Part shown: positions 11,366-46,398 of the stretch, one piece after another
Position numbering within the stretch: the first letter of the stretch is position 1
How the letters are laid out: each line of letters starts with the position of its first letter
Assembly: GCA_951406725.2 (NCBI GenBank)
Contig: OX597829.1
Span: forward strand, 2,108,001-2,172,000
Direction of reading: 5' to 3'
Length of the DNA: 64,000 bases
Source: Octopus vulgaris
Lineage: Eukaryota
Made by a program: the position numbers and the translations under genes
The notes under the pieces: generated by a model
The model's input: the letters and a program-made list of their open reading frames with translations, nothing else
Told to the model about the DNA's origin: nothing
Database searches by the model: none

Positions 11366-11809
11366 GGATTTTTTCGGTTTGAACGGCAGTTTTTTCTAGC
11401 GGTGTCATATGAAATTGTCACACGTAATTATGACCCTAGTATCGATCTATTGCATTTCAATCTCTTTTAGGGTTAGGGTTAGTTAGAGTTAGGGTTAGGG
11501 TTAGGGGTGGGGGGAAGGATATCTTTTTTTCTTCACAAATGTAAATAAACCCAATCTGTTTCTTAAACGAGGGACATATTCATACGGCCCAGAATGTTTT
11601 TTTACCTCAATAGGCGTCAATGATTGGTTGAAATTGCAGAAATTGAAGAAAAAAAAAACAACAAATATCTTACAAACTATAGAATTTTCTCAATAAAGCC
11701 AAGAGAAAAAGATGTTTTATAAACACATTCTACCAGTATACGAAGTTTTAAATTTTTTAGTTACCTAGAAATTATGCTAAAAAAACTGCCGTTCAAACCG
11801 AAAAGATCC
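11366..11809. mobile_element. Merlin-like MITE family A carrying TTAGGG repeats
   Basis: TIR GGAT(T)TTTTCGGTTTGAACGGCAGTTTT. TSD CGATTGGC/CGACTGGC. TTAGGG tract ~11467-11506. Confidence 0.85.
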
Positions 11810-12099
11810 CGACTGGCATATAAGTCTCTGATTGGTCAAGGCAATACACGTGACAATCAGTCGCAAAATATTTTTAGATTCTAAGTTCAAAAATTTATGA
11901 ATGCTTTATTTTTTATCTCCTATTCTAAAATCTGTGACAGGATTTCTTTATCCTCAGAGGAACAGTTCTGTATCAGACGTCATCAAGACCGAAACGGCAG
12001 ACATCATAGGCAACAGTGCCAGACGACAGAATGGGTAAAATCTAATATTTCCTTGTATTTATCGCCACGGTCCAGCTGAATGGCAATATTTTAAGTCTC

Positions 12100-12518
12100 G
12101 GATCTTTTCGGTTTGAACGGCAGTTTTTTTTTATAATTTCCACGTAACTAAGCACTTTTAAACTTCGTATTCTGGTAGAATGTATTTATAAAACATCTTT
12201 TTCTCTTGGCTTTATTGAGAAAATTCTATAGTTTGTAAGATATTTGTTGTTTTTCTTCAATTTCTGCAATTTCAACCAATCACTGACGTCTATTGAGGTG
12301 AAAACATTCTGTACCGTATGAATATGTCCCACGTTTAAGAAACAGATTGGGTTTATTTACATTTCTGAAGAAAAAAGATACCCTTCCTCCCACCCCTAAC
12401 CCTAACCCTAACCCTAAAACAGATTGAAATGCAATAGATCGATACTAGGATCACAATTATGGGTGACTATTTCACATGACACCGCTAGAAAAAACTGCCG
12501 TTCAAACCGAAAAGATCC
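12100..12518. mobile_element. Merlin-like MITE family A (opposite orientation)
   Basis: TIR GGATCTTTTCGGTTTGAACGGCAGTTTT. Perfect 8-bp TSD TAAGTCTC. (CCCTAA)4 inside. Confidence 0.88.
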
Positions 12519-12765
12519 TAAGTCTCCTATTACTGAAAATTTTTGGCATCTAGATAACACTGAATAGTTTTTGACACGCTCGAACTAACTCTAGTGGAAA
12601 GGCTACACATTTTCAACTCAGTTTAGGTGATGAATTTATTCAAAAGAATACAGTGAACTTGGCGCAGGGAGTGGAATATCAAGAGTTTTGGACATTATAT
12701 GTGGCCATGCTGGGGCACTACATTGAACAGTTTTGGTTGAACAAATCGACCCCAGTCCAAATTTT

Positions 12766-12983
12766 GGCGAACCTTCGGTATACGTACCGGTGTAAGTACC
12801 GGAAGTACCGGATACATTTCAAAAAAGTGTTTTTTTTTATATATGGGGGTTAGGGTTAGGGTTAGGGTTTGTGTTAGGGTTAGGGTTTGTGTTAGGGTTA
12901 GGGTTAGGGGTGGGAGAAAAGGGTTTCTGTTATCTTCAGAAATGTAAACAAAGTCACGTGTGTACATATACCGAAGCATCGCC
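12766..12983. mobile_element. Merlin-like MITE family B carrying TTAGGG repeats, nested in a SINE
   Basis: TIR GGCGAACCTTCGGTATA / TATACCGAAGCATCGCC. Perfect TSD CAAATTTT at 12758-12765 and 12984-12991. Confidence 0.82.
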
Positions 12984-13780
12984 CAAATTTTATATGTGGT
13001 ACTTATTCTATCGATCTCTGTTGCCGAACCGTTAAGTAATGTGGACGCAAACAAAGCTATACCGCTTGTCAGGCAGTGGTGAGGCACAAACGCAAACACA
13101 TACGCACATGCATATACACAAACATACGCACACACACGTCGAGCTTCCACACAGTTCTTGTCTACCAAATTCACCCATCAAGATATTGATCAACCGGAAG
13201 ACAATTTGTCCAAGATGTCGCGCAGTGGGACTGAACCTGAACCCATGTGGTTGTAAAATGAGCTCCTGAATTCGTTTTGAGCTTCTTTTTTTTCCTAACG
13301 CAGTCACTACCATTTTGAAAAGACTTTTATAAAATTTCAAGACACTTCAAAGAAGTATGTAAACACTGAGAGATTTGACTGTTGTTTCATGGAAGCTGAA
13401 CGTCTCTTTAGAGTCGCTCTTGCTTCCCTTCCACCACCGTATTTTCATGTACTTTGGCAGCCATGGAATCGTGACGTATGCATAAATGGGGTTGCGTACA
13501 ACGTTTTTCTCTCACTTGCACAGTCGCTGGTAGCAAGCGTTCCATGGCCATGGCACCATCAAGCATTTGCACACGTGAAATTCTTTATGTGCATACATAC
13601 GTGTATACACACAGAGACACACACTTATATATACATGTGTATATATACATGTGTATATATACATGTGTATATACATATATTTATACACACATATATACAC
13701 ACATATATATACATACATGCGTACAGACATACAAACATGCATATATAGACATACACACACATACGCACACACACATACAC

Positions 13781-13832
<52 letters not shown>

Positions 13833-14160
13833 GTGTGTATGTGGATGTGTATATATATATATACATACATGCTTACATGCACAAAACGCACATATATACA
13901 AACACATACATACATACGTACATACATTCGTGCGCACATACCTATGCACATAAATTAATAGACACACACACATACACACACACACATACGCACACGCACA
14001 TACACACACGTGCACACACATATACATGTGTGTGTATGTGGATGTGCATATATATATATATATATACATGCTTACATGCACAATACGCACATATATACAG
14101 ACACATACATACATAAGTACATACATTCGTACGCACATAAATGCACACACACGCACACAC

Positions 14161-14202
<42 letters not shown>

Positions 14203-14664
14203 GCACACATTACACACACTTCTATTTCGTTTTACTTCTCTTTATGTTTATTTCCCTTTTATTATTCAGATTCTTACTTTATTCATTTATTTCACTTACA
14301 GAAACATTTTCGTAATTAGGTTTAGAATTACGGAAAAAAAAGGAAAAAACGAAATTTTCTCTTCTTTTCTTTTCTTTTTTGCAAAAAATACGTTTATTTC
14401 CGGATTATCTCAAAGTTCTCTGTAATTGTTTTTTTCACATATTGAATAAAATTTTTGGATAAAACCTGCCTCGATTCCATCATATTTATCTTTGTTTCCA
14501 ATTCTTACCGTTTATTATATTTTTTATTCTTCCTTCTTTTCCTTTATGCAATTCCATGCAATTCCATATTGTTTACGTTTTATTGTTAAATAAATCCTAT
14601 ACACCTTTCCGACAAAGAGGTTGGTTTTGATAATATTATTTCTGTTGTGATTATCGTTGTTGAT

Positions 14665-14666
14665 AC

Positions 14667-14711
<45 letters not shown>

Positions 14712-14781
14712 CATCTACATCATCATCATTATTATTAGTATTATTATTATTATCATTATTATTATTATCATCATCATCATC

Positions 14782-14843
<62 letters not shown>

Positions 14844-14913
14844 CATCTACATCATCATCATTATTATTAGTATTATTATTATTATCATTATTATTATTAT
14901 CATCATCTTCATC

Positions 14914-14960
<47 letters not shown>

Positions 14961-15028
14961 CATCATCATCATCATCATTATTATTATTATTATCACCGTC
15001 GTCATCATCATCATCATCATCATCGTCG

Positions 15029-15060
<32 letters not shown>

Positions 15061-15127
15061 GTCATCGTCATCATCATCAACAGCAGCAGCAGCAGCATCA
15101 CCATCATCATCATCATCATCGTCATCG

Positions 15128-15162
<35 letters not shown>

Positions 15163-15185
15163 GTTGTTGTTGTTGTTGTTGTTAA
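14665..15185. repeat. Compound (ATT)n/(ATC)n microsatellite
   Basis: Seen directly. Confidence 0.95.
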
Positions 15186-15452
15186 TGTTATTATCTATTT
15201 CCAAATATGTATTTAACCGTTTATATAAACTTTGCTTTAAACATATTTATTTTGCATTTATCGGTGTAATGTTATAAGGTGAGTGTGTGTATTGGTGCGT
15301 GTATGCATGTGTGTGTGTGTGTGTCGTGTGTATACATACACGTGTGAATGTAGAAAAGTATGTTAGAGTATTTGCATTGAATGCAGTTGTGTACGATTGT
15401 TTGTGCACCTGTATACATGTGTACGTGCATAAATATATATACGTACTCACAA

Positions 15453-15862
15453 ATGTATGTATGTATGTATGTGTGTGTGTATATGTATGTGTATGTATGT
15501 ATGTATGTATGTATGTATGTATGTACGTATGTATGTATGTATGTATGTATGTATGTATGTATGTATGTATGTATGTATGTATGTATGTATGTATGTTTGT
15601 TTGTATGTATATATGTATGTATGTATGTATGCATGCATGTATGTATGTATGTATGTACGTATGTATGTATGTATGTATGTATGTATGTATGTATGTATGT
15701 ATGTATGTATGTATGTATGTATGTATGTATGTATGTATGTATGTATGTATGTATGTATATATGTATGTATGTAAGTATGTATGTATGTATGTATGTATGT
15801 ATGTGTGTGTATGTATGTATGTATGTATGTATGTGAATGTATGTTTATATGTTTGTATGTAT
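15453..15862. repeat. (TATG)n microsatellite
   Basis: Seen directly. Confidence 0.95.
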
Positions 15863-16543
15863 GGGTAGGATGTTGTTCTATTTAAAATCTTCCTATGGAG
15901 AAACAGAGCTCCATCGTTGGAATTTAAAAAAACAACAGCATTAAATGTTACATGTTGAATTTGGGAAAAGTTTTGCCTATTTTCTTTTCACTTTCTTGAC
16001 TGAGAACCGATGGTATTCCAGGTTACAACTGAAACATTTATTAACATGGCCAAGGGCGCCAAAAATTATCGATATAAAATGTGAGTACAGAATCTGGGTA
16101 TATATATTTCTTTATTGCCCACAAGGGGCTAAACATTAGAGGGGACAAACAAGGACAGACAAAGGGATTAAGTCGATTACATCGACCCCAGTGCAAAACT
16201 GGTACTTTATTTATCGACTCCGAAAGGATGAAAGGCAAAGTCGACCTCGGCTGAATTTGAACTCAGAACGTAATGGCAGACGATTTCACCCGGCGTGCAA
16301 ACGATTCTGCCAGCTCGCCGCCTTAGAATCTGGTTATATAGAAGTTACAGGTTTCGAAGCAAATATCTATAAACTTTCGAGTTTTCACTGATTTTGGACG
16401 AATTCCTTACATCTACAGGACCATAACATTTTTATGACTGTACATGACTTTCGCGGCATTTCTTGTAACTATTTACGTTTTGAGCTCAAATCCCGTTGAA
16501 GTCAACCTTGCCTTCCATCTTTTCGGGGTTGATAATATAAAGT

Positions 16544-17195
16544 TCAGAGGAGAAGAGTAGAAATTACCTCTTTTTCAGCTCTACAACAATGTCCAGCAAA
16601 CTGGACTCTCCTACCTTTCACAAGAGATGATACAGGTAGTAATTTCCCATATATTTGTACTTTGGTTGGATGACGCTTCCACGAGAGATTTTGAGTTCTC
16701 AGAAGGAGGCGAGTGTAGTTTCCATCCAACCGCTTCTCAAGCTTCTTTGATAACGTCCAGGTTTCTGAGACATATAGTAGAATTGGTTCAACTGTGGCTT
16801 TGAAGACTTGAAGTTTGAAATCTCTACTTAGATTTGATGACCAGATATTATGCATATCATTACAGGCTGACCAGGCCATACCCTTTCTAGTTAGAAAATC
16901 TTTTTCAGATGATGATATGTATGACCCAAGATATTTGTAATCAGAAACCATATTTAAGAGCGTATTGTTGAGAGTATGGATGATGGACAGGCACTGTTGG
17001 ACAGGCACTTTGTTTACATATTCAGTCTTCTCCCCTTCTGCTCGCGATACCAGAGGGCGCATACTCTCCCACCCTGATGTAATCTCCAGGGATACAGACA
17101 TCCAGCAACAGGACCTCCGTAATGCTATGATGGACCGTGAAGTCTGGCGTAACATAGTAAATTCCATTGTCTCGACCACGGTCGAACAGTGTTGA
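16544..17195 (+). mobile_element. RTE LINE copy with 5' inversion (16544-~17030 antisense, ~17034-17195 sense), 14-bp TSD
   Basis: Same family as 43440-44977. TSD TGATAATATAAAGT at 16530-16543 and 17196-17209. Inserted into a degenerate SINE. Confidence 0.88.
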
Positions 17196-19271
17196 TGATA
17201 ATATAAAGTATCTGTGAAGCACTGGGGTTGATGGTTTAGAATAATCCTTTCCCTTTACAATGCTGGTCGTGTTCCACAATTTGAAACCATTTTCCTAATC
17301 TAAACAACTATATCAGAAGCATTTGCAATTCTAAAAAGTTTTCATTCGGTAAAGGTTATGAAAGATAAATTCCACCAATATTTCTTGTGTTGAAATGCAT
17401 GTACATCGTCAACAGGAAAACTACTTTCTCCACTTCTTCTGAAGATATTTTCTTGCAGATTGCATGTATATTGTCACAGTAACAACATTGTGTAGCATCA
17501 TGAGATCATGTTATGGACGTAAACAAAGAGTCTCGCTTCAAAATTAATTGGTTTCGAGTTCAGTTGGAATTGAATTAAAGTTTTATGGGTGAAATTTGTT
17601 GGACGGAAACAGCGTGGAAACACAGAGGAAGAACGGTCCTTCGTCCTGAGCAATAGGCTCAATACATCGCTCGATTTAACATCTCTCGCATAGCCTTTTA
17701 ATACCTTTAGCGAAATTTGCTTTGCTACAAGAATTCATATCAGGTCTTCGGGCTGGAGATAACTTCCTAACTTCAAACTGTCCAGTCTCGGAAATCCTGT
17801 AACAAAATAAGTCTAAGAAACTCACCTAACCCTACTGATTTGATTAAGTGATGTAAAGAGCAAAAGTGCCTTCAGGATATTTTGTGGGACTTGTTTGTGA
17901 AGTTTCCAACTCCCAAGTAATATAATCGGTGTTTTCAATAGCATCGTGAATAGACAATCTTCCGTGTCTATTTGTTAAACAGGTAATTGGATTGTAAAAA
18001 TCACATCCTTTAAACGGTTGCAAATCTTACTCTTTCTGTCGATGCTAGCCAAGATCTCCAAGTTTAATGAAAACATACAGATGCATGCCTTCTTCTTTTC
18101 TTTTTCTTTTTATTATGCTGGGTCTCTCCTTAGAGTCTAGGTTGAGATAGTTTGGTTCAACAGTTTTAGTTTCAGATTCACCTGGAAATACATTATTAGG
18201 TGAGTACTTGAGTAATTCATTGCTTGTCACTAAGAGGTTGTTCTCTTCACCTTGAGCTAATGAGTTATGAGTTTGTATTTTGTGATGTTGATTAATTATT
18301 GCTAACTAAGTGATATCAATGCCACTCTCCAAAAAGGTTGTATGGTTGACACTTACATGACATGGCAGTGTGGTGATACTTACTATACTCGTAATCTGTC
18401 TGGGCTGATCCTAAACTTCTTCCCCTGTTTTTTCTTCTGCGATCGAGCTAGTCAATACCACTGTCTCCGTTAGTTTCTAGACCTTGTAGGCTTTAATATC
18501 TCTGGAGTAGATTTCTTGTTAAGCCAGCGCCCTACAAAATCCGATTCTATTCCAGCCCACTGTACACCATATAGCATGATTCTAAACTATCAAAGATATG
18601 CCGGGAATCGCATCGGTTTACCTATCTCTGTCTATGCCACCAACGACAAGTATCAACCTCCTTGACAATACCTTCAACTTTGTGATTAACTGAATTATAT
18701 ATGTGAAGATCTTTATCAAACCCATTACACAATTTCAAATCCTTCTTCTCGGTGCTGTCACTACCATCCAGTTTCCAGTGTTCTGCTTGTTGCAATAGAC
18801 AACAAATAAGGCAGAAGCGAATACGTCTGCTATTTAATAATATGGTTAGTGTGGCAGGCCATCAACCTTTGATGATTTGTCTCCACAGCTAGTGATCATT
18901 TCGTCTGCTGAAGTCGGCTTTTCATCCTTCATTCCTGGTTGAGAGTCGCGGTAGGCCATCGAAGTAGGCGTCGAAGTTCAATATCTCCACAGCGACACTC
19001 TTCATTCGGTCAAATGTTCTCGGAAAGCAGTAGATATTTTATTGGAATTGGATAGCAAGAGAATTGTGACCCGTAAAAGACTGGATAGTGGCTTTGTTGC
19101 TATATTATATGTCTGCCACATAGGCTCATCAAACGGCTCTCGTGCTCTTGCGTTTCGGCGTACGTGCTATGACACGAGAAATACATCTTTCGTGTTCCGA
19201 GGCGATAAAATGGTCGAGGGCCATTCTCAGCGCTAGTACATTATTTGTGATGCTTCTCCCATGCATCTCTC

Positions 19272-19687
19272 ACCATCATTGTTCGACCGTGGTCGAGACA
19301 ATGGAATTTACTATTTTACACCAGACTTCACGGTCCATCATAGCATTACGGAGGTCCTGTTGCTGGAAGCCTGTATCCCTGGAGATTACATCAGGGTAGG
19401 AGAGTGTGCGCCCTCTGGCATCGCGAGCAGATGGCTTCCAGAGGAGAAGAGAAGAAATTACCTCGTTTTCATCTCTACAACAATGTCCAGCAAACTGGAC
19501 TCTTCTACCTTTCACAAGAGATGATACAGGTGGTAGTTTCCCATATATTTGTACTTTGGTTGGATGACGCTTCCACGAGAGATTTTGAGCTCTCATAAGG
19601 AGGCGAGTGTAGGTTCCATCCAACCGCCTCTCAAGCTTCTTAGATAACGTCCAGGTTTCTGAGCCATATAGTAGAATTGGTTTGACT
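19272..19687 (-). mobile_element. 5'-truncated RTE LINE 3' fragment
   Basis: PILLYGSETWTLSKKLERRLDGTYTRLL...IVSTTVEQ* is nearly identical to the C-terminus of the 43448 ORF. Confidence 0.9.
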
Positions 19688-21150
19688 GATTGATTTACTG
19701 ACTGATTTACCAGCTCCTCCTCTTCTCTAATGATCTCTGCCGCTACTTCTTTCAAAAAAAAGCTACGAAAGTGCATCTTTCTATTTAGCGAGACCCCACT
19801 ACCTGACGCCCTATGTCATTTCCTACTGAACCAATTCCGTCATCCGGTCTTTGACAACTTTATTCGCGGAGAATGATGCGTTCGGCTTCTAGTTATGAGC
19901 TCCTGCCTCTTGGTCCTCTCTTGGTTGATTTAACATATCACGATGTTGTGGTCAGTGTAGTCAACTTCACGAATCTGTGGACAACTTGACCTTAAATCCT
20001 ATCGACTTACTTCAAAATTTTAAGTACCAACAGAAAGATTCGGTGCGATTTGTCCACATTAACGCACTAAAGTTTCAAGATAAAAGCTGTCAGATATTTG
20101 GAAATACCTGGACAGGTCTACAAGGCCTTTACTTGCTCCTTTCCTTTCACCTTCTCCCAGACAATTCATAACGCTAACAAATGACTGTGTTGTTATGATT
20201 GGTTGTATTGTTGCTGTTATGCTGGCAGAAACGTCAAAGCGTCGGAAAAAATATATTGTTCGCAGTATTTGTTCCGAATATTTAGGTTCTGAGTTCAAAT
20301 CACTCCAAGGCCAACTTTGCCTTTCAGCTTTTGTGGGTACGAATATGCCAATCAGTTACTGGAGCAGATGTGATTGCTGGTCTTATGTCAAAAATTAGAA
20401 AATATTGGGCACGCCTGAAATTGAGGATAAGGGGACACTCGACTGCATCAACTCCAATGCTCAACTGCTACTCATTTTATCGACCCCGAAAGGATCACAA
20501 ACAATATCGATCACGGCGGAATTTGAACTCGGTGATTGCAGGGAAAAACAAGAAAAACGAGAATTACTAGAACATGAAGAAGCATTATTCAACAAGGAGT
20601 TACACAAACAACTTCATGTGACCACAATTCAAGTTGCAGGAAGACATAGATAGGACTCGTTAAAAAAAGGGAACACTTTAAAAGGAGATTTTAATCGGTA
20701 TTTTCATTAGCATCATGAATAGACAATCTTCTTTGCCTTTCATCCTTTCGGGGTCGATAAATTAAGTACCAGTTACGCACTGGGTCGATATAATCGACTT
20801 AACCCCTTTGTTTGTTCTTGTTTGTCCCCTCTATGTTTAGCCCCTTGTGGGCAGTAAAGAAATAAGAAGTCTACAACAACAGGCAGAAAGGGGAGAATTC
20901 GCAGTTCTATAAAAAAGGAAGTGGTTGTCCTCCAACAGGAAGTCTTTTACTTTAACACATACAGAAGTGGGAAGCGAAAGTAAACCTAACTGACCGAATG
21001 CAAGATACCGTACAGTTTCTTCTGTGGTCATTTACCCAACAACCCAGTAGATGTACGTTGTAGGTCGCTTGCACTTATACAGCACACTCTTCCATACTGA
21101 TAGAAAAGAAAGAAAAAGAAAACAAGCGGATCGCCTGCTTTAATGAATAA

Positions 21151-21439
21151 CTAGCTGAGATACCCGGCGTTGATTGGGAATTAAATGGCGTAATTTTTTT
21201 ATTCTTCTACTTGTTTTGGTCATGTGATTGCCGCCATGCTAGTGCACCGCCTTTAGTCGGATAAATCGACCCCAGGATTTATTCTTTGTAAGCCTAGTAC
21301 TTATTCTATCAGTTTGTTTTGCCAAACGTCTAAATTATGGGGACGTAAACACAGCAACATCGGTTGTCAAGCGATGGTGTGGGTACAAACACACATACAT
21401 ACATACATACATACATACATACATACATACATACATACA

Positions 21440-24313: not shown

Positions 24314-24739
24314 GGATCTTTTCGGTTTGAACGGCAGTTTTTTTAACATAATTTCTAGGTACCTAAACACTTTTAAACTTCGTATACTGGTAGAATGTGT
24401 TTATAAAACATCTTTTTCTCTTGGCTTTATTGAGAAAATTCTATAGTTTGTAAGATATTTGTTGTTTTTTTTTCTTCAATTTCTGCAATTTCAACCAATC
24501 AGTGACGTCTATTGAGGTGAAAAACATTCTGTGCTGTATGAATATATCCCTCGATTAAGAAACAGATTGGGTTTATTTACATTTGTGAACAAAAAAAGAT
24601 ACCCTTCCCCCCACCCCTAACCCTAACCCTAGCCCTAAAACATATTGAAATGCAATAGATCGATACTAGGGTCATAATTACGTGTGACAATTTCATATGA
24701 CACCGCTAGAAAAAACTGCCGTTCAAACCGAAAAGATCC
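24314..24739. mobile_element. Merlin-like MITE family A
   Basis: Same TIRs. Perfect TSD ATTTCTCC. CCCTAA repeats. Inserted into a degenerate SINE. Confidence 0.88.
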
Positions 24740-25334: not shown

Positions 25335-26246
25335 GTGTGTGTGTGTGTGTATGTATGTATGTTTGTATGTATGTGTGTACGAGCATGTAGAGAGGAAAGA
25401 GAACGAGAGAATGAGTAAGTTAGTGAGAGAAATTTACGCAGCGCATGCGCATGCACGTGCACACACAGTTGAAGAACCTCACGTGAATTCTTCAGAAATC
25501 TAACAGAATTCGAATTTTATTTTCTGGACGTCATAGGACTACGTGTGTGTATGTGTGCGCGTGTTCACGTTAATGTATGTATGTGTGTATGTATGTATGT
25601 ATGTATACGTATGTGTGTGGGCGTGCGTCAGTTAATTTCATGTACATTCCACGTTCCCCTAAAAATAAAATAGGATAAAATAGAAAATGGACTCGTCCAT
25701 ACGTTAACTCGGGAAAGAACGCTGAATGTCTCATTTCAAATTTTCAAGGCAAAGCAAGAGGTATGTAAGTCGAAAAGAAATGGTTTGATATATATACGTA
25801 TATATATGACACAATAGTAATAACAATAACAATAATGATTTCTTTATTTCTTGTTTATTAATGGTGTCGACGAGATAAGATTTTGGCATTCGTTTCCTGT
25901 CTCTCTCGCGGTTAAACATTTTATCTGTATCAAAACCTGACAACAAAATATATCTGAAAAAAGAAGAGAAGAAAAAATAATTATTACAATAGTACAGTAA
26001 CAATAATAACGACAATAACAACGAGAGTTATTTCTAACATTTTGAAATTCCAGCAACAAAAACAATCATAATTATCGTATAATATTAACAACCGTCGCAT
26101 TATTTTTATTTATTTAGTAATAATAATACTTTGACCGTGTTTATATATATTAGTTACAGGACTGAATAGCGTTTGGTTTCTACTATAACTGTAACATCAT
26201 CGACAAACATTTCACGATTTTAGTCTTATAAACAATTGGAGAAATT

Positions 26247-27719
26247 ATGCCATTTTCGAACTCACCATCTGAAAATGCATATTCTTACCCAAACAGTAAT
26301 GTATCGTCGACCGAAGAAACGCAAGAAGCAACTCAAAGAACTCCATTACCCTCACAGATAAGACTAAAATATGACCGAGACTTCATTCTTAAGTTACAAT
26401 ATAAAGAAGCTTCCCTCACCAAACCTGTTGGACTTCCAGACTTACCGGAAATATTATTCAAGAAACCACAAATTCCGAAGCAACTTAAATACAACAAAAT
26501 ACGGCGAGACATCATACCGTTTAAATGTTCTAAGAATATGAAATCTGTGGATGAATATGTGAATGATTCGGAGGACGAAGAACTTAATACGAAAATGAAG
26601 AATATTGCAAGCAGACTAGCACCGGAAAAATATAAATCCGTTTTATCACAGATACGTGATATTCAAATTGATAAAGAGAGTAAATTGGTAGCTATCATGA
26701 ATCTTTTGTTTGAAAAGGCAACGAGTGATCCGATGCTTTCTACGGCGTATGCTTACGTATGTCGGTGTCTGACTTTGAAGAGAGTTCCATCAATTCACTG
26801 CCACAAGGAAGTGGTGAATGTCCATAAAGTTCTTAATAAGAAATGTCAAAAGGAATTCGAAAAATACCAAGTTGAAGAAGCAATGTTGAATAAGAAATTG
26901 CAGCAAATTGAAGACACCGACAACAATATAGAAAAACTGAAATTTCAAAAGGAACTTGTGAAGGATATTGAAATTTTCAAAAGGAAATCACAAGCAAACG
27001 TTCGGTTTCTTTGTGAATTGTTTAAACTTGGTGTGTTGAGGGAAAACACGATGCAGAAATATATTAAAAAGATGCTTCAGTCTTTATCAGAGAATAGTTT
27101 GGAAAGTGTGTGTCTGTTGTTCAATACAATTGGTGAGAGACTTGATACGGGAAAGAAGTTTAAAATGGATGTGTATTTCATTCAATTAAAAAGCATCGCA
27201 GAAGAGAATTCGACTCCTAACAGACTGAAATTGATGATCGAAAACCTAATTAGTTTACGTGAAAATCAATGGAACCAAAAAGAGGCTGAGAACCATACAA
27301 AGCAAAAAGGAATTACAAGTGTAAAAGACAGTATGAAAGAGGAAACCCTGAAGGTGATGGCAAATAGCTACTATGAGAACAAGGTCAAAGATATTTACCA
27401 AAACGGTGACGGTTCCGTTGCTTCTAACATGGGAGATATATTCTCAAGCGATCCTGGGACTAAAACTAGTTCTTCATATCAACAGCCACAACAACAACAA
27501 CAGCAGCAGCAACAACACATCAAAGAGGAGTACGTGAAACCTGGTTATATGAAAATCTTCGATATTGATGCTCAAAACAAATGTATGGATTTGGCTCAGC
27601 TTGAGAGGAAATATTGCAATTTGGTCTACGACGGCACAACCAGAGCATCTGCCAGGGGAGATGTGATGGTGCCAAACTGTAGCCCAAACATCATTCGAGA
27701 AACCAAAGAAGCTGTTTAA
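26247..27719 (+). CDS. EIF4G: Intronless eIF4G-like protein (eIF4E-binding motif + MIF4G/HEAT-1 domain + Q-rich tail), probable retrogene
   Basis: 490-aa uninterrupted non-repetitive ORF with an in-frame TAA upstream at 26229. KYDRDFILKLQ..KPVGLPDL matches the eIF4G 4E-binding region (human KRYDREFLLGFQ..KPEGLP). LLFEKATSDPMLSTAYAYVCRCL, CQKEFEK, NVRFLCELFKL and LISLRENQW match the eIF4G MIF4G domain. Confidence 0.9.
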   Translation: MPFSNSPSENAYSYPNSNVSSTEETQEATQRTPLPSQIRLKYDRDFILKLQYKEASLTKPVGLPDLPEILFKKPQIPKQLKYNKIRRDIIPFKCSKNMKSVDEYVNDSEDEELNTKMKNIASRLAPEKYKSVLSQIRDIQIDKESKLVAIMNLLFEKATSDPMLSTAYAYVCRCLTLKRVPSIHCHKEVVNVHKVLNKKCQKEFEKYQVEEAMLNKKLQQIEDTDNNIEKLKFQKELVKDIEIFKRKSQANVRFLCELFKLGVLRENTMQKYIKKMLQSLSENSLESVCLLFNTIGERLDTGKKFKMDVYFIQLKSIAEENSTPNRLKLMIENLISLRENQWNQKEAENHTKQKGITSVKDSMKEETLKVMANSYYENKVKDIYQNGDGSVASNMGDIFSSDPGTKTSSSYQQPQQQQQQQQQHIKEEYVKPGYMKIFDIDAQNKCMDLAQLERKYCNLVYDGTTRASARGDVMVPNCSPNIIRETKEAV

Positions 27720-28599: not shown

Positions 28600-30007
28600 G
28601 TTGTATTGGTTGGTTTAAAATGCAATTAACATGGTATTGGTTGTTTTAAATATTTCCTTTTCACTGGACTGAAAAAAACGATTCATCCGTCCTCTCCAAG
28701 TGTGGCTGTGCAGCTGGAAAGCTTGTTTCCCAGCCTTGTTGTCTTGAGTTCAGTCCCACTTGGCGGCATCTTGGGCAAGTGTCACCTACTAAAGCCGCGG
28801 GGCCGACCAAAACATTTTGAGCGTATTTGGTAGATGGAAACAGAAAAGAGCTTTGTCTTATATATTCTCTAGGTCCCTTTACCGAACCCGCTAGTTTACG
28901 AAGACATAAACAAACTAACACCGGTTGTCAAGCAGTGATGATAACACGCGCGCGCGCACATAGCTATATATACAGGGATAAGTCGCTTTACCCATTTATT
29001 ATTATTAGAAATGTGTATATATAAATAGATACGACGGGTTTCTTTCAGTTTCCGTCTGCCAAATCCACTCACATAGCTTTGTCTAAGGTGCCACGCAGTG
29101 GGACTGAACCCGGAACTATATGGTCGGGAAGCAAGCTCCTTACCTATTTCTTTACTACCTACAAGAGGCTAAACACAGAGAGGACAAACAAGGACAGACA
29201 AACGGATTAAGTCGATTATATCGACCCCAGTGCGTAACTGGTACTTATTTAATCGACCCCGAAAGGATGAAAGGCAAAGTCGACGTCGGTGGAATTTGAA
29301 CTCAGAACGTAACGACAGACGAAATACTGCTATGCATTTCGCACGGCGTGCTAACGATTCTACCAGCTCGCCGCTTTACCGCCAAATAAGGTGGTTCTGG
29401 GCAATATTTGCAGTTTCAGTTTTTTTTTTCTCAAAAACCGCCCCGCCCTCCATTCATTTCATATTACACACCATTAGCCTCACGACCATTCCATTGTAAA
29501 TAACCTTGGAGCAATCGCAGTTCCAACATCGATGGAAAACTTGAGAAAGGTGTCGCCCGATATCACCCCCGCATACATAAGATAACTTTGGATATTTGTG
29601 TTGATTGCAAATTTTGCCACAAAAGCAACAATTTCGGGTTCGGGATGAGTCAGTTGCGTCGAACACGAAACGATGAAAGGCAAAGTCAACCTCGACAGAA
29701 TTTGAACTCAGAACACAAAGACGGACGAAATGCCGCTATGCATTTTGCCTAGCGTTCTAATGATTCTGCCGGCTCACCGTCCCCAACTTTGGGCATGTTT
29801 ATACTCTTTTACTAGTTTCAGTCATTTAACTGTGGCCATGCTGGAGCACCGCCTTTAGTCGAGCAAATTGACCCCAGGACTTATTCTTTGTAAGCCTAGT
29901 ACTTATTCTATCGGTCTCTTTAGGCGAACCGCTAGGTTATGGGGACGTAAACACACCATCATCGGTTGTCAAGCGATGTTGGGGGGACACACAAACACAA
30001 ACACACA

Positions 30008-36206: not shown

Positions 36207-36395
36207 TTTCCATCTTTCAGTACTTTTATGCGAGTATTCCCCTCTGGACACTTCCCTTTGGTTTTTCTTCCAGAGCCTACCGTTCTGCTATAGTCATAGC
36301 CCCGGGTCAGGTTGAACCCTTCACCTTGTTGATCTCATCAATCTGAGAGAGAACCTAACATCGTCTTCGTCGTCGTTGTCGCCAACAACAACAAC

Positions 36396-36805
36396 GGAGG
36401 CGCAATGGCTCAGTAGTTAGGGCAGCGGACTCGTGGTTGGAGGAACGTGGTTTCGATTCCCAAACCAGGCGTTGTGTGTGTTTATTGAGCGAAAACACCT
36501 AAAAGCTCCACGAGGCCCCGGCAGGTGGGGGTGGCGACCCCTGTTGTACTCTTTCGCCCCAACTTTCTCTCACTCTTTTTTCCTGTTTCTTGTCCCCGAC
36601 TTCCTACGCAACCGCTGAGCCTGGATTCACATTCATCCATCCGTCGATGCTCTCGGTGTCGGGGGTTGACCTGCTTTCTCTTCTGCAGGTCTTACGAATA
36701 GCAAAGGACCACGATTCGGACTTCTCCCACTACAGACAATCATGAGGAGCGATCTTGCGAGCTCTGGGACGAAGACCGCTTCGCTCAACAAACAAACAAA
36801 CAACA
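36396..36805 (+). mobile_element. SINE family 3 head with an alternative 3' tail ending in (CAAA/CAA)n
   Basis: First ~180 bp match 22815-23000, then unrelated sequence up to CGCTCAACAAACAAAC. Confidence 0.75.
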
Positions 36806-36926
36806 ACAACGACAACCAATAATAGCTGATAATTTGTTTTAATGATTAGGATTGACCCTGATGAAGGGATACTCAAAGCATTAACAACATCCACCTGGGT
36901 CGATAAATGACTAAAAGAATAGAATT

Positions 36927-37343
36927 GGATCTTTTCGGTTTGAACGGCAGTTTTTTCTAGCGGTGTCATATGAAATTGTCACCCATAATTATGACCCTAG
37001 TATCGATCTATTGCATTTCAATCTGTTTTAGGGTTAGGGTTAGGGGTGGGGGAAGGGTATCATTTTTTCTTCACAAATATAAATAAACCCAATCTGTTTC
37101 TTAAACGAGGGACATATTCATACGGCACAGAATGTTTTCACCTCAAATAGACGTCATTGATAGGTTGAAATTGCAGAAATTGAAGAAAAACAACAACAAA
37201 AATCTTACAAACTGTAGAATTTTATCAATAAAGCCAAGAGAAAAAGATGTTTTATAAACACATTCTACCAGTATACGAGGTTTAAAAGTGTTTAGTTACG
37301 TGGAAATTATTTTAAAAAACTGCCGTTCAAACTGAAAAGATCC
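36927..37343. mobile_element. Merlin-like MITE family A
   Basis: Same TIRs. Perfect TSD ATAGAATT. (TTAGGG)3 inside. Confidence 0.88.
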
Positions 37344-37589
37344 ATAGAATTATTTTGTCTGCATCATTGGCTTCCCAATCGCCTCGAAAGCCATAACGGG
37401 GTGCCTGGAGACCAAAGCTTGCAGACTTTCCCAGGATAACCGAGAAGCTGCACTTCATAGACACGTACCCACCGCTCTTCTTCTTCTTAAAGAATTGCTT
37501 CACTCTGTCTAAGTTACATTTCTCGCTATGCAGTGCGCTATGTGCCCCTCTCAATGATCGCTTCAGTGATTTCGATAACACCATCCAGC

Positions 37590-38850
37590 ACTGTGCCAAA
37601 CTGTACTGTAGTGTCAGTTTTGGCGAAACCGACATTGGCAACAGATTAGATTTGGTGACCTTGGCCTCCGATCTGCCAGCCTATCTTCCCTCGCTCTCCT
37701 CCGGTCGCATCCTTATCGACAGACATCCACGAGATAGCCGAGCCAAATGTGGCCCAGGAGTCAGAACAAGCCGAACGGACTGCTAATGAGCTCGCCGTCC
37801 CTAGAATACGGATGTCTAATGCATCTGGGACGACATCAGAAGCAAGTTGACCTTCGAGCAGCCAGAGACATCTCTAGGCCACCACCGCCTTACCCGCCTC
37901 CATTTCGCCTCGCAGCCAAATAGCGGGACACCCTTCATCAACCGGCACTAGTGAAATAATCAGAGGTGTCCTTGACGCGGCTGGCTTCCCGTCTAAACTT
38001 GAGCCAAGTAGGTCTCGACCTTAGTACTTACTACTTGTGACGGTGTTCACCCAGGGCAGGTTGAGCCGGCTTCTTCTCTGGTCCTGGCGGCATCACGAAC
38101 CATGGCGGCTCACGCTCGACGGTCTTGTGCGAGGTCACTGAAGATAGCGAGCCATTCACGGTTCCATAGGATTCATAGAAGTTTCGTGAGAATATTGAAT
38201 TCACAAGCGGTCCCCGATATCCCGCATGCATATCCCGAGTGACGGGACGCCCTGTTTGCTGCAGAGTCTCCACAGACACAGGGACAGAACGACCTCGAAG
38301 CTGCCGGTTGCCGATTAGACGCCTCTTGGAATTTTCACCAGAGCCCCGTTGGCCAGGCTGCTGCCCTAATACCGCTCGGTGCCAGACCAATCCGCCTTGG
38401 GTGACCCTACCAGGAACCGAAGTTCCTGACGGCATAGCTCTGACACTGCCCGTTTACACCACTTTGAGGAGGGGTTGGACTTTTGGGTAGTTATCCCCGA
38501 CGGAATAACTCACTTCCCATTCGAGGGAGACGGATCTCTTGTCTGGGACGCGAGATGCATCGGCACGTTCTCCGGCTCCAAACTTGAAGCATTGGCTGGA
38601 AACCCGGGTGTCACTGCCTGTAAGACGGCGTAGAGAAGAATTAATAAATACAGGAACTTGGCCGGTCGCTATCATTCTGTGTTGTCACCATCGAGGCTTC
38701 ATGTCTTCTAGGACACCCCATACTACCGTTTTCCTTCGCAAAATAGGTATAAGGGCGGCCTGTCGAAGAAATGTGGCTCGCGAGCTGGAATGGCTGCTGC
38801 AGTGAATGACACAGGCCATTCTCCGCACTTGTTCTGGGATATGTGGGCAA
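37590..38850 (+). mobile_element. Degenerate CRE-like non-LTR retrotransposon (RT tail + restriction-like endonuclease)
   Basis: GC-rich island. Frames give RFGDLGLRSAS, RGVLDAAGFPSKLEP, IPDGITHFPFEGDGSLVWDARC and TTVFLRKIGIRAACRRNVARELEWLLQ, resembling CRE-clade PDG...WD endonuclease motifs. Many frameshifts and stops. Confidence 0.65.
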
Positions 38851-39341
38851 TCACCCCACCACTTCTATCTTCTGCCACGCACCTTTACTGCTTTTCGTTT
38901 TTTTCTTCTTTTCTTATCGTTCGTTTTTCCTGTTTCTTTGTATTTAAATGTTATAAATAAAATAATTCATAAATCTCAGAACTGTTTCGGAAAAGAATAT
39001 CCTGGAGATCAAAGAAAAAAGAATTTCAAAGGCAACAAGGGTATTTCAAAAGTGAAAACAGAAAAACCAAAGTGTTATCTCTCTCAGAACGCTAGCAAGC
39101 ATTTATTCTTTTGCTGGTTTCAATTTATTCCATTATTTTTATATTTTATCCACCCCATCCACCCCGTCTTTCGCTGCTAGGCTCCTTTCTTTACTCTTTG
39201 TTTTATTTTTAAAGTGTATATTTAAACAAAAGAAAATAGTTTATGTCATTTATTTATTTATTCATTTCCTGTGTTGAGTCAAAAGTTTTGCAATAACTCG
39301 GTAACTTATTTGTTCTATTCGTCAATTTACTACAAAAGCAA

Positions 39342-39572
39342 GGCGGCGAGCTGGCAGGATCGTTAGCACGCCGGGCGAAATGCGAAGCCGTATTTCGTCT
39401 GCCGTTACCTTCTGAGTTCAAATTCCTCCGAGGTCGACTTTGCCTTTCATCCTTTCGGAGTCGATAAATTAAGTACCAGTTACGCACTGGGGTCGATGTA
39501 ATCGACTTAATCCGTTTTTCTGTCCTTGTTTGTCCTCTCTTAGTTTAGCCCCTTGTGGGTAGTAAAGAAATA
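39342..39572 (+). mobile_element. SINE family 1, full-length representative (other copies ~7283, 8000, 16106, 20733, 29143, 41070, 52570, 56846, 60784, 62497)
   Basis: tRNA-like head GGCGGCGAGCTGGCAG...GAGTTCAAATTCC, central GCCTTTCATCCTTTCGG..TCGATAAA block, and 3' end GTGGGTAGTAAAGAAATAG. More than 12 copies in the window. Confidence 0.85.
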
Positions 39573-39745
39573 GGTATTTCGTCTGCCGCTACGTTCTGAG
39601 TTCAAATTCCGCTGAGATCGACTTTGACTCGGATTGTTCTCAAGAAAATTTAGAAAATAATCCTTTCTTAATAGTAAGACCATAGGGAAGAGGGGTCTAC
39701 TTCTAGCATAATGGATGTCCATTTAGTGGTCATCCCTCTTATATG

Positions 39746-39784
<39 letters not shown>

Positions 39785-39999
39785 GTGCATATTTGTGTGT
39801 GTGTGTGTCTTCCTACCATCGCTTGACAACCGGTGTTGGTGTTTACTCCCCCGTAGCCTAGGGGTTCGGCAAAGGAGACCGATAGAACAAGTACTAGACT
39901 TACAAAGAATAAGTCTTGGGGTCAATTTCTTCGACTAAAGGCGGTGTTCCAGCGTGGCCGCAGTCAAATAACTGAAACAAGTAAAAGATTTATATATAT

Positions 40000-40074
<75 letters not shown>

Positions 40075-41816
40075 ACGAGATTCTTTCAGTTTTCGCCTAC
40101 CAAATACACTCACAAAGCTTTGGTCAGCCCGAGACTATATAGTGGTGCTGCCACGCAGTAGGACTGGAACCCGGAACCTTACGGTTATGAAGCAAGCTTC
40201 TTATCACACAGCCACGCATGCGCCAATAAGAAACATATTCACTGTTTAGAATTGAAGATGATCCGGAGTGGAGAAAACATTGCAGAAATTATTGATGGGA
40301 TCGTGAATGGCGAATAGACTTTACCAAACCTCGATGACTGATGACTGACTGGCCAAACAATTGGTCAAGCAATCGATTGATTAATTGGTTAAATAAATTA
40401 ACCAATTCACTAATAACTAATAAAGAAATGAAATAGAACCAGTGTGTGTGTTTATTATTGGCATAATGACCCTTCCGAGATTCAACAAAATTTGTTTGAA
40501 CACACGAGCTTACATCATGAATCGTACAAATCAAAAACAGAAACGATCTGTTTTAACATCTCCTTTTAATCTCCAACTGCGATTTTCGGTTTTCCAGATA
40601 ACGGTATTTAATGCATTTAAAAGGCGGCCAACTAGCAGACACGTTAGCAGCAAAAGAATGTCTCGCGAAACTTATTTCTCTCTCTGTGTTCTAAGATCAA
40701 ATTGCACCGAGGTCAACTTTGCATTTTATCTTTTCCGTTCCGATAAAAATGAATGAAGCCAAGGCGGTGTATTGGTGAAACCTTAAGACTGGATGCCTTG
40801 TGCTATTTGTCATGCTCTTAGCATTCTCATTTCAAATCCTGCCATGGCCCACACTACTGGTACACTTAACTCGTAGCCCAGTTTTGCACTAGCGTCAAAC
40901 ACCTTGGGTATCTTTGGCAGGGTCTGCTCTATTGCAAGCATTTAGGTCCAGTTTCTAATTTCCTAAAACATCTCTCCCTTCTCTCCACCCCAATGTCTTG
41001 GAGTCCCTATAAAAGATTACGAACATTGCCTTCCTCTTGACAAAAAGTCTAGAAAAAAAATCTCTTAAGATGGTGAACTGGCATAATCGTTAGCGAGTCG
41101 GTCAAAATGCTTAGCGGTATTTCGTCTGCCGTTACATTCTGAGTTCAAATTCCGCCGAGGTCGACTTTGCATTTCATCCTTTCGGGGTCGATAAATTAAG
41201 TACCAGTTACGCACTGGGGTCGATGTAATCGACTTAATCCTTTGTCTGTCCTTGTTTGTCCCCCTCTGTGTTTAGCCCCTTGTGGGTAGTAAAGAAATAG
41301 GTACTTTATCCGGATCTTTATATTTTGAATTCAAACTCTACCGAGGTTGACTTTGCTCTTATCTTTTCATGGTCGATAAAATAAATACCAGCTGGATATC
41401 GGGGTCGATGAAATCGCCCTTAAGCCCCTTGTCTTAAAATTGTCAGTAAAAATTTGAAACATCACTTTTTTTCTTATTTCTACGTCGTTTTTTTTTTTTT
41501 TTTGCTTTTTCATGCACGGTACGCAGCCAAGGGAGAGAACTCAGTGCCTAGTTTGCATTCTTTGAATCAGAAATAAATCGCCAAGATTGAAATATTTCCA
41601 TCTGAGTTTAATATTCAGCTATCAGCGGTAGTGTGCGTATGGCATCCTGAAGAATTGGTAAATCATCATGCGTTCCGGTTGAAACAATAGACAAAGGAGA
41701 ATAACTTACATCAAGATGATTGAATGCGGAGAGATCTTAAGAATAAGTATTTGAACATCCATTCAAGTTTGAATCTTATATTCATGGGAATATAATTATT
41801 ACTCTAATATTACAGT

Positions 41817-41888
41817 TCCTCGGTAGTATAGTGGTAAGTATCCCCGCCTGTCACGCGGGAGACCGGGGTTCGATTCCCCGCCGGGGAG
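41817..41888 (+). tRNA. tRNA-Asp-GTC: tRNA-Asp (anticodon GTC)
   Basis: 72 nt TCCTCGGTAGTATAGTGG...GGTTCGATTCCCCGCCGGGGAG. The acceptor stem pairs, the anticodon GTC lies at 41850-41852, and A and B boxes are intact. Nearly identical to canonical metazoan tRNA-Asp. Confidence 0.97.
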
Positions 41889-41897
41889 GCGAGTTAC

Positions 41898-41910
41898 TTT
41901 TTTTTTTTTT
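41898..41910 (+). terminator. RNA polymerase III terminator of tRNA-Asp
   Basis: T13 run starting 10 nt after the tRNA 3' end. Confidence 0.85.
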
Positions 41911-43439
41911 GGCTCGATTTTCTGACTTGGATCCTGCTTACTGTATCCTGTTCTCTGAGGATCCGTCTGGGGTGAGGGCTTGTGTTGGTCAACCATTGTG
42001 TATATATATTTGTGTGAGTGTGTGTCTGTATTTGTTGCCCTGCCATTGCTTGACAACCAATGCTAGTGTGTTTATGTCTCTGTAACTTAGTGGTTTGGCA
42101 AAAGAGATCGATGGAATAAGTACTAGGCTTACAAAGAATAAGTCCCGGGGATCGATTTTCTTCGACTAAAATAAAACACATTTAAGGTGGTGCTCCAGCA
42201 TGGCCACAGTCAAATGACTGAAACAAGTAGAACAATAGAACAATATATAAATTATTAGTTATTATAGATATCATATAATTAATTATTAATGAATTATCAA
42301 AACATTCCAGGAATATTCCGTATTTAAAAGAAAATTCTGATTTTGATTTATTTTGTGCAATTAATTATCTTTAAATATTCCAATTTTCAGAGATAAAATT
42401 ATGAAAGTAACTTTTCCACAATACAATCTCTACGGGTCCCGCTGGTATTTATCAATACGAAACTGATGCTATATTGTAAAAATTGTCAGGCTGTCAGCTT
42501 ATGTCGCTAGGTTAGCCCACACTTTGTAAGAATCTCCTTGCCATAGAGGTGGGAATCGAGGTGGCTTATGGGCAAATCCTCTATTCGATAAACGGTTCTC
42601 AGTTTCTGGGGAAAAGAGGATTAAGGTGCTTAAGCCAATTGCAGAATTAGCTGTAACGAGTTCCAGGTAATCTGGTCAAGGAGGAATGAAATTGAATTTT
42701 AAGAGACATAATTTACCTTACGTTCAATTAGTTTCCTAGAGTGAAGTGGTTACGGTATACAAAATATTTTGGTTCTGGGGCACCTTAACCACCAGGAAAG
42801 GCGCATGTTGTAATGCAGACAATAATACAGAATGTGTTAGCAAAGGAGTATCCAAGAGTTGTGATCTGGATGCGGCTGATCCCAGTTAGACTTTAAGTAG
42901 TTAAAGGTGGAAACTCTTGCATGAAGCAGAGGTGATTCTTTTGTGAAGACTTTCTGCTGATCAACTCTCCAAAATGTCTCTTTCTTTCTTCAAGTAACTG
43001 ATTTTTGTTAGCCCTCAGTTTTGCTTTTAATAATTGACCTTCGGCTATAATCACCGTCAGGAGATGTGAGAGAATATTCTTTATCATCGTCATTCATCGA
43101 ATATTGTGCTCTCGTGTCATAGGACTCACAAAGCCCGTTGTTTTGATTCCACGGCGTGTGTGATTCTAAGACGACAACACACCACGTGAACGGAGCTCCA
43201 GTCCGACGCTGAGTAGACTGGACCAACGTGGAATGAAGTGCTTTGCTCTCACCCGGTACCAGAATCGAAACCGCGATCTTGCAACAACGAGTGCAACATC
43301 TTAACTATTAGGGGCCAGGCGCCTTTTAAGAGAATGCTGGTGATTACTGCTAAAAGAACAACAGCAACAACCGTTTCCATTTCATCCTAAAGCTACTGAA
43401 AACGAACCCGTGAGCCTAATTTCGCAACAAGACTAAATA

Positions 43440-44977
43440 CATCATCATCATTGTTCGACCGTGGTCGAGACAATGGAATTTACCATGTTGCGCCAGACTT
43501 CACGGTCCATCATAGCATTACGGAGGTCCTGTTGCTGGATGCCTGTATCCCTGGAGATTACATCAGGGTAGGAGAGTGTGCGCCCTCTGGTGTTGCGAGT
43601 AGATGGCTTCCAGAGGAGAAGAGTATAAATTACTTCTTTTTCAGCTCTACAACAATGTCCAGCAAACTGGACTCTCCTACCTTTCACAAGAGATGACACA
43701 GGTGGTAATTTCCCATATATTTGCATTTTAGTTGGATGGCGCCTCCACGAGAGATTTTGAGCTCTCATAAGGAGGCGAGTGTAGGTTCCATCCAACCGCC
43801 TCTCAAGCTTCTTTGATAACGTCCAGGTTTCTGAGCCATATAGAAGAATTGGTTCGACTGTGGCTTTGAATATTTCAAGTTTGAAGTCTCTACTTAGATT
43901 TGATGACCAGATCTTATGCATGTCATGACAGGCTGACCAGGCCATACCCTTTCTAGTTAGAAAGTCTTTTCCAGATGATGATATGTATGACCCAAGATAT
44001 TTATAATCAGAAACCATATTTAAAGGTGCACTGTTGAGAGTGTGGATGATGCAATCACTGTTGGACAGGCACTTGTTTATGTATTCAGTTTTGGTCTCAT
44101 TGAGGTAAAAACCTACACAATTTGAGGCTTGTTCAAGAGATTGTAAAAGAGACTGGGCATTGGAGAGAGAATCACTGATAAGAGCGATGTCGTCAGCAAA
44201 GTCAGTGTCTGTCAAGTACTCAGCTGGGTGTCTGGAACTTCTTCTTGGTTTTATTTCAAAGCCCTTGCCAGAGATGGTATCAACTGACATACGTAGCACA
44301 TAATCAACAACAATGATGAAAAGAAATGGGGCGAGTGTGTCTCCCTGCAGTATTCCGGCCTCGATCGAGAAAGATGATGTTTCTCTATCAGGGGTTAAGA
44401 TGGTTGAAGACGTATCTGTGTAGAGGACCTTGATGGCAGAAATAATTTTGTCTGGTATCCCATAGAGCTTAAGGATTTCAAACATCTTGTACCTATCTAC
44501 AGAATCGAACGCTTTAGAAAAGTCTACAAATACCATTGCAAGATCGCGATTAAATGCTTTTGATTCTTCAATAAGTCTGCGCAGGCATAGTATCTGGCTC
44601 AGCGTTGAGCGCCCATGTCTGAATCCATTTTGGTTCTTTCGGAGCAAAGGTTCAACAAAAAGGACAAGACGGTTTAGGATCAGTTTGTTGTACAGTTTTG
44701 CAGCAATTGACATTAGAGATATGCCCCTGTAGTTGGTGACGAGGGACAAATCGCCTTTTTTGGGTATTGGAATGATTTGAGATTGGTGCCAAATCTTTGA
44801 AGCGACAAAGGTGGAAAGTGTGTGGTTGCAGAGGTTAAGCAAAAGTGTGTGAAATCTATCATCCTTCCAAATCACAGCCGGAATGTTGTCGGGACCAAAT
44901 GCTTTCGAGGCTTTTAGTTGCTTGGTGGCTGCTGTTAGTTCAAATATGGTAAAAGGGGAGGTGTTGATGTCCAGCAA
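43440..44977 (-). mobile_element. 5'-truncated RTE-clade LINE with intact 509-codon reverse transcriptase ORF
   Basis: RT motifs YRGISL, QNGFRHGRST, FVDFSKAFDSV, GILQGDTLAPFLF, FADD and YKYLG. The ORF ends directly in a (TGA)n tail. No endonuclease domain is present. Confidence 0.93.
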
Positions 44978-45438
44978 ATGAATGTGACGGTCAACGTTTA
45001 TCTATTAAAACCCTTGCTTTATCTGTATGGTACTAATAATAACTTATGATAGGTAATTCAGTGCGGTACCGTATTAATAAATATTACGACAGATTCGTTG
45101 GTGGATGCTGTATTAATGATAACGATTATGATACGATTAGGATTAGTGTGGTGACAATTATGGTACAAAAGTTAGTGTTAGAGTATTTAATTAAATACGT
45201 TATACTAGGAAGGAATACGGAAAACAGAAAGAGAAAAAGTGTGAAACGAGGCTCCAGCAGGGGCTGGTGGCCATCCCTGCTGTACTCTTTCGCCACAACT
45301 TTCTCTCACTCTTTCTTCTGTTGGCCTGCTCGCTTAGCCAGCGGGGTGGTGTCATCTGAAGGCTAAAACAATGCGAAGCGCATTGTGACCAGCGATGTGT
45401 AGCAACACCTGATAGCCTGGTCGGTCACGGTGATATAT

Positions 45439-45496
<58 letters not shown>

Positions 45497-45621
45497 GCAC
45501 ACACAAACCACACTACACGAGCGCACACACATAATTCTGTGGCGAGTTAAGAAGTAAACAGTATTTGTTATAGGATAAATCTTTGACTATGTCTACTCTG
45601 ACTTCTTCGGATTCGAATAAA

Positions 45622-46398
45622 GGATCTTTTCCTTTTGAACGGCAGTTTTCAACACAATTTCCGCGTAACTAAACACTTTTAAACTTCGTATACTGGTAGA
45701 ATGTGTCAAAATAAAACATTTTTTTCTCTTGGCTTTCTTGAGAAAATTGTAATTTTAAAGTTTAACGTAGTTTAATTTTTCGAATTTTAACCAATCCTAT
45801 GCCCTCTAGTGAGCTAAAATCATTTGCTGCGTCTAAAACTAAGACAACATCCTGTCATTAACCCTAACCCTCAAATTTTAGCCTTTCGTTTTTTTTTTTT
45901 CTTAATTGTTAAATTAATTTAAGGATAACAACTGAGAAAAAAAAACGAAAGGCTAAAACGAAAGCAATGGAAAATAATTTTAATTTAACAATTAACAAAA
46001 AAAAAAACGAAAGGCTAAAACGAAAGCAAAAACTCAAAATAAAAACAAAACGAATAATTTTAGACACGCGTAACAATTAAATTAATTTAACAATTAAGAA
46101 AAGAAAAACGAAAGGCTAAAATTTAGGGTTAGGGTTAGGGTTAGGGTGAGGCTTAGGGTTAGTGACAGGATGTTGTCTCAGTTTTAGACGCAGCAAATAA
46201 TTTTAGCTCATTAGAGGGCATAGGATTGGTTAAAAGCCGAAAAATTAGACTACGTTAAACTTCAAAATTACAATTTTCTCAAGAAAGCCAAGAGAAAAAA
46301 ATGTTTTATTTTGACACATTCTACCAGTATACGAAGTTTAAAAGTGTTTAGTTAACTAGAAACTGTGTTGAAAAGTGCCGTTCGAAAGGAAAAGATCC
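45622..46398. mobile_element. Long palindromic Merlin-like MITE (family A relative)
   Basis: Inverted arms of ~250 bp starting GGATCTTTTCC. TSD CGAATAAA/CGAATACA. CCCTAA in the left arm and TTAGGG in the right arm. Confidence 0.85.

Follow-up and report, generated by a model that had tools for sequence, protein, structure and literature searches.

Analysis of a 64,000-nt stretch of Octopus vulgaris DNA (contig OX597829.1; genome size 2.8 Gb), hereafter termed the window, and of genomic samples revealed that a clade of Merlin-derived miniature inverted-repeat transposable elements (MITEs) is the main source of the sampled short interstitial tracts of the hexamer TTAGGG. We favour, with a probability of roughly 60%, the reading that gene-less Merlin copies carry a tract which was added by telomerase at a break, has been kept as a passenger and has spread with the elements, thus generating most of the sampled short TTAGGG tracts. 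Interstitial telomeric tracts are conventionally attributed to one repair event per locus. About 85% of the tracts sampled here are transposed copies from one transposon clade, which may thereby have laid down tens of thousands of potential half-sites for telomere proteins. Regardless of any benefit of the tract to the element, such MITEs provide a simple and countable alternative source of interstitial tracts in any genome; PMC9071541 describes as a mystery where the abundant tracts on the chromosome arms of animals come from.

TTAGGG tracts inside GG-ended elements

Six clusters of at least two TTAGGG/CCCTAA units are present in the AT-rich and microsatellite-packed window. As maintained in the preliminary description of this DNA, all of them lie inside elements with GG...CC ends and 8-bp target-site duplications; terminal inverted repeats (TIRs) with 5′-GG were found in all six elements, and the duplications are exact in four and carry one mismatch in the elements starting at 11366 and 45622. 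Each of the six tracts also shows the G-quadruplex (G4) pattern and at least five G-runs. A chance origin is not tenable, since 22,831 exact (TTAGGG)3 matches were found genome-wide compared to none for the reversed hexamer.

Four of the elements belong to family A, a Merlin MITE of 417–444 bp with 30-bp TIRs. Its 417-bp reference copy (36927–37343, plus strand) has an exact duplication and three units at 37028–37045 (plus strand), and its right arm is homologous to the left end of Merlin. The 444-bp copy at 11366–11809 (plus strand) contains five perfect units and variants followed by a G-rich tail (11467–11506, plus strand). The remaining two, both on the minus strand and with exact duplications, span 419 bp (12100–12518) with four units at 12394–12417 and 426 bp (24314–24739) with three perfect units and one variant at 24615–24638, the tracts being likewise on the minus strand. 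Family B is represented by a 218-bp element (12766–12983, plus strand) with a different GG-TIR, an exact duplication and eight perfect units with spacers (12850–12909, plus strand); the 3′ flank of its tract is common with family A. The 777-bp element of family C (45622–46398, without strand assignment) is a foldback Merlin MITE (foldback z = −33) with arms of about 300 bp and the same terminal sequence as family A; five perfect units reside in its right arm (46123–46158, plus strand) and a short mirror tract with two G-runs in its left arm (45859–45871, minus strand). Six independent captures of the hexamer are ruled out by a common TIR and a common arm of 130–200 bp in A and C, and by about 60 bp beside the tract common to A and B.

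A genome search (40 candidates scored and 30 loci retained per family) returned full-length copies of A, B and C from many contigs. Being short (218–777 bp), non-coding, bounded by TIRs and highly repeated, they have the properties of MITEs. GG begins 27 of the 31 full-length A matches, and among these 31, counted after exclusion of one degenerate match (L050), 17 are flanked by exact 8-bp and three by exact 9-bp duplications, nine by 8-bp duplications with one or two mismatches, and two by none; copies of B and C were likewise checked for 8-bp duplications. The 12,686 exact matches of the A-type TIR set a floor for the copy number of this family, which was estimated at about 39,000 (12,600–91,000) from five copies in 360 kb of random DNA (36 stretches of 10 kb). 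Copies of A deviate by 1–10%, on average by 2.9%, from their consensus. Two further tract-bearing families are D (876–1006 bp) and E, which is defined by a third TIR type with 44 exact matches.

Some arrangements of these elements are more complex. Family B forms head-to-head composites which transposed jointly as a single unit and generated new duplications (L040 2707–2972, L119 1250–1849, L126 1491–1797 and L130 1277–1791), and one tract is expanded far past 20 units. Merlin elements and MITEs are moreover found within other GG-ended elements, with a separate 8-bp duplication for each (L073 2044–4778, L059 434–3332 and L156 1413–2447).

Merlin affiliation and share of the genomic tracts

Merlin elements are DDE transposons related to IS1016/IS1595 with 5′-GG ends and 8- or 9-bp duplications (the consulted part of PMC8101967, summarising Feschotte 2004). 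According to the same source they are abundant in Octopus bimaculoides, and Merlin is listed in the repeat annotation of O. vulgaris (PMC13282606, consulted in part). Of at least 476 candidate places for the Merlin/IS1595 domain PF12762 in the genome, 150 were scored, all above the cut-off, and the flanks were inspected at about 100, which uncovered several families of Merlin, GG-ended and flanked by duplications of 8 bp. The arms of A and C correspond to a 200–270 bp end which in one clade precedes the start of the transposase; nine such left ends were aligned, and over some 200 bp six of them, each from a transposase-bearing copy, share 70–81% identity with the arms. The domain scores 57.9–58 bits at loci of the L078 type, the first 209 residues alone 26.7 bits at a cut-off of 27. 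Homologues of the studied transposase carry PF12762 and its closest relatives are Octopus proteins; the DDE residues are present in the transposase of the clade, the frame of which is broken by stops. An intact autonomous partner with both ends, a duplication and an open frame was not found among these roughly 100 places, every partner copy examined being broken, and the right end of sub-family F, a transposase-bearing group, was not reached. Nor did the same places reveal a partner with the TIR of family B, the B TIRs near Merlin loci belonging to separate or nested MITEs. Thus, the proposed membership in Merlin/IS1595 holds for A and C, whose arms match transposase-bearing ends, and lacks a partner for B. 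Judged from their sequences, A, C and D are non-autonomous Merlin derivatives, and B is putatively placed in Merlin by its ends only. A separate peculiarity of several Merlin copies (L161, L162, L164 and L175) is that the same piece of the element's own transposase gene lies inverted just past the stop.

The contribution of the clade to the genomic tracts was determined on contig C1 for the first 62 distinct perfect (TTAGGG)3 loci, reaching up to 64.6 Mb (five more listed loci were left out); a locus was assigned to the clade when lying within 160 bp of clade sequence, with the tracts masked in the library. By this measure 53 of the 62 consecutive loci belong to the Merlin MITE clade (51 firmly; 95% confidence interval 0.75–0.92), namely 31 of A-type, seven of C and 15 of D, two of the D assignments being weak and four concerning loci that served as their own reference, although they match the left end of Merlin as well. 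The random 360 kb contained six tracts, five of them in family A. MITEs of this kind consequently do seed interstitial telomere-like sites, as had been supposed. The density of about one per 10 kb given in the preliminary description applies locally to the window; as a genome-wide value it is ruled out by the genomic match count and by the six tracts in the random DNA, the latter corresponding to about one tract per 60 kb, so that the window is about six-fold enriched (P ~ 0.0008 for six in 64 kb). The other nine C1 loci lie outside the clade, and one of them (L276) has empty homologous sites. There, at about 1490–1530, a four-unit TTAGGG tract sits in a dispersed repeat of which 24 homologous sites are without tract, an arrangement typical of a classical short interstitial telomeric sequence (ITS).

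Origin and conservation of the tracts

Several features connect the tracts of the different families. Those of A and B have a common 3′ flank (p 0.005), those of A and D sit at matching positions, and C and one form of D join the tract to the same arm, the junctions being 13 bp apart. On these grounds a common ancestral tract is probable for A, B, C and D, and the six window tracts would have a single origin. The tract of D starts near a TTTTAG at which the tract-less twin repeat in the other arm stops. Homologous tract-less stretches are found in Merlin left ends as well as in this other arm of D, again with TTTTAG near the junction, and the junctions are degenerate.

For the first step we propose that telomerase added TTAGGG units where an ancestral Merlin element was broken, by the mechanism described for short ITS (PMC7215372), an event that would have occurred a few times over, with double-strand breaks such as excision gaps as the presumed sites of action. 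A telomerase-type source is suggested by the missing matches of the reversed hexamer, by the insertion at L276 with its 24 empty sites, and by the start of the D tract at TTTTAG. One ancestral tract might then have been re-cut by deletion and foldback into the MITEs of families A, B, C and D, and the tracts of E and F might represent separate captures. Merlin transposase presumably mobilises the MITEs in trans, for B as judged by its ends alone, and slippage might change the length of the tract. Alternatively, the tract could be an ordinary microsatellite for which the untranslated repeats of Merlin supplied a native GGTTTTAG-like seed that slippage then extended, its likeness to telomeres being accidental. 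The genome is rich in microsatellites, D tracts mix units of six and eight bases from the TTTTAG seed and the number of units is labile, all of which fits this explanation; nevertheless, we consider it very improbable in view of the zero matches of a reversed hexamer of equal composition, and of the same hexamer in the unrelated contexts of E and F and in another phylum.

The conservation of the tract was analysed by a substitution test on 46 A copies which were not picked for the tract, the latter being parsed in 42 of them. Changes were found at 25 of 429 G sites of the tract (5.8%) and at 232 of 4747 non-CpG G/C sites of the body (4.9%; p 0.42), and at 7 of 447 tract A/T sites (1.6%) versus 206 of 10890 in the body (1.9%; p 0.86). 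When compared with private mutations only, the tract G sites look faster (p 0.0002), a comparison that is not like for like. The tract hence mutates as fast as the other parts of the element, and no conservation of it at the host level was seen; the genomic copies show no constraint on it, and the number of units varies between two and nine in A copies. This neutral decay runs counter to the retained module previously envisaged, while the absence from most copies that would also have contradicted it was not observed: at least one TTAGGG unit exists in every sampled copy, i.e. in 46/46 of A and in 30/30 each of B and C, the copies of B and C having been selected for their resemblance to queries with a tract, a bias towards its presence.

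The tract is, however, dispensable for Merlin transposition in general, as it is absent from all nine aligned Merlin left ends, from a deletion derivative (three loci), from the Merlin family with GGCACAG and from GG-ended MITEs such as a 470-bp family with 8-bp duplications (249 exact TIR matches). Another tract-less candidate, the abundant family I, was dropped from this comparison as its ends are Helitron-like by eye. The earlier proposal of a binding site for the transposase or of a G-quadruplex as the function of the tract finds little room. The G4 pattern does occur in 35/46 copies of A, 23/30 of B and 15/30 of C besides the six window tracts, but in only 2/18 copies of E and 0/12 of F, which excludes it as a common feature; the tract G sites mutate no slower than other G/C sites, and the tract is missing from transposase-bearing ends, variable in position and asymmetric in A and B. 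We therefore regard either function as scarcely credible.

A different kind of function would be that of a cis module which recruits a host protein binding telomere repeats (telobox- or TRF-like) and is selected because it benefits the element itself. The bound protein might protect the element or the donor gap or raise copying, such that tract-bearing families out-amplify others and the host copies still decay neutrally. The YTAGGGTTR half-site, known as the TRF1 motif (PMC3241663, consulted in part), is found in 46/46 copies of A, 29/30 of B, 30/30 of C, 14/18 of E and 12/12 of F, the tract recurs in three sequence contexts here as well as in a hemichordate Merlin, and tract-bearing A is far more abundant than the tract-less 470-bp family. 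The half-site, however, follows trivially from the tract, and two of them, as needed by TRF1 dimers, were detected in only 25/46 copies of A, 5/18 of E and 4/12 of F. Moreover, tract-bearing E is rare, tract-less families transpose, and position, orientation and length of the tract vary. A genome search for the TRF domain gave no match, as did its control. Altogether, we consider such a module unlikely, though it deserves attention, and an extension by which Merlin across animal phyla keeps the host telomere repeat as a selected module borrowing telomere-binding proteins, with the short ITS of such genomes deriving chiefly from MITEs rather than from telomerase acting at each site, appears equally doubtful to us. 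If the tract were indeed selected and followed the host repeat, this would constitute a new transposon use of the telomere machinery.

Capture by telomerase and carriage as a passenger remain our preferred explanation, against which several observations have to be weighed. Family E carries TTAGGG between unrelated flanks in 17 of its 18 elements, and all 12 copies of sub-family F have a degenerate tract that follows the stop codon at a distance of about 380 bp. The S2 Appendix of PMC8101967 contains the TTAGGG 12-mer 36 times, and the 22 places inspected are slices of Merlin from the hemichordate Ptychodera flava; many of these slices represent, by eye, one GG-started element with a tract about 340 bp inside, the slices being incomplete and duplications not visible in them. 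Simple capture at excision gaps predicts tracts in other transposon superfamilies, none of which was seen among the 62 C1 loci. The telomere repeat of molluscs is TTAGGG. The ends of 20 contigs (L444–L463) contained no telomere array, so that the host repeat was not seen there. Among the sampled copies, none of the full-length members of A, B or C was devoid of the tract, and by exact TIR count tract-bearing A exceeds the tract-less family about 50-fold (12,686 versus 249). Neutral decay is compatible with selection at the element level, on which the substitution test is silent since the TIRs decay too, and the degenerate junctions are also compatible with slippage from a native seed.

The motif of the A/B tracts was also searched in metagenomes, which gave 93 loci in GC-rich eukaryote contigs without a MITE structure of the A/B kind. 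In these contigs (L351–L443), coding-like sequence is broken up by degenerate TTAGGG arrays, which frequently follow directly on CACCTG, in the manner of repeat-filled introns.

Related systems and further features of the window

The O. vulgaris elements resemble the Merlin superfamily as described in the consulted part of PMC8101967 in their 5′-GG ends, 8- or 9-bp duplications, TIRs from 30 to about 300 bp, a DDE_Tnp_IS1595 partner and internal tandem repeats, and differ from it in having the telomere hexamer as their internal repeat. In the main text of that paper the string 'telomer' does not occur, and its Repbase table lists one period-6 array (Merlin-1_Aplcal) without unit sequence. Short ITS formed at double-strand breaks share with the present tracts the few internal TTAGGG units, flanking deletions, inverted duplications and in-register junction bases (PMC7215372, consulted in part); each locus described there is a separate repair event, whereas here transposition has multiplied a few ancestral tracts into most of the loci. 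In the titles and abstract openings of the open-access literature, neither telomeric repeats within Merlin elements nor a predominant origin of short ITS from MITEs was found to be reported. Telomere-type repeats are also carried by the ciliate telomere-bearing elements TBE1 and Tel-1, DNA transposons of another superfamily with repeats of the host type at their very ends. In the octopus elements, by contrast, the tract is internal, 40–1700 bp from the end.

Apart from the tract-bearing elements, the window contains an uninterrupted frame of 495 codons (26232–27719, plus strand), a possible retrocopy, which we take by eye to resemble the middle domain of the translation factor eIF4G. Three related reverse-transcriptase-like frames on the minus strand (43448–45001, 16544–17254 and 19276–19815) are, by eye, probably fragments of long interspersed elements. 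At 2424–3230, two adjacent repeats, presumably Helitron-like, end in a hairpin followed by CTAG, and related sequence gave six matches in the 360 kb of random DNA. Finally, a dispersed family resembling short interspersed elements, with 13 copies of a 92-nt core, occurs at 3522–3759, 29141–29378 and 11 more places.

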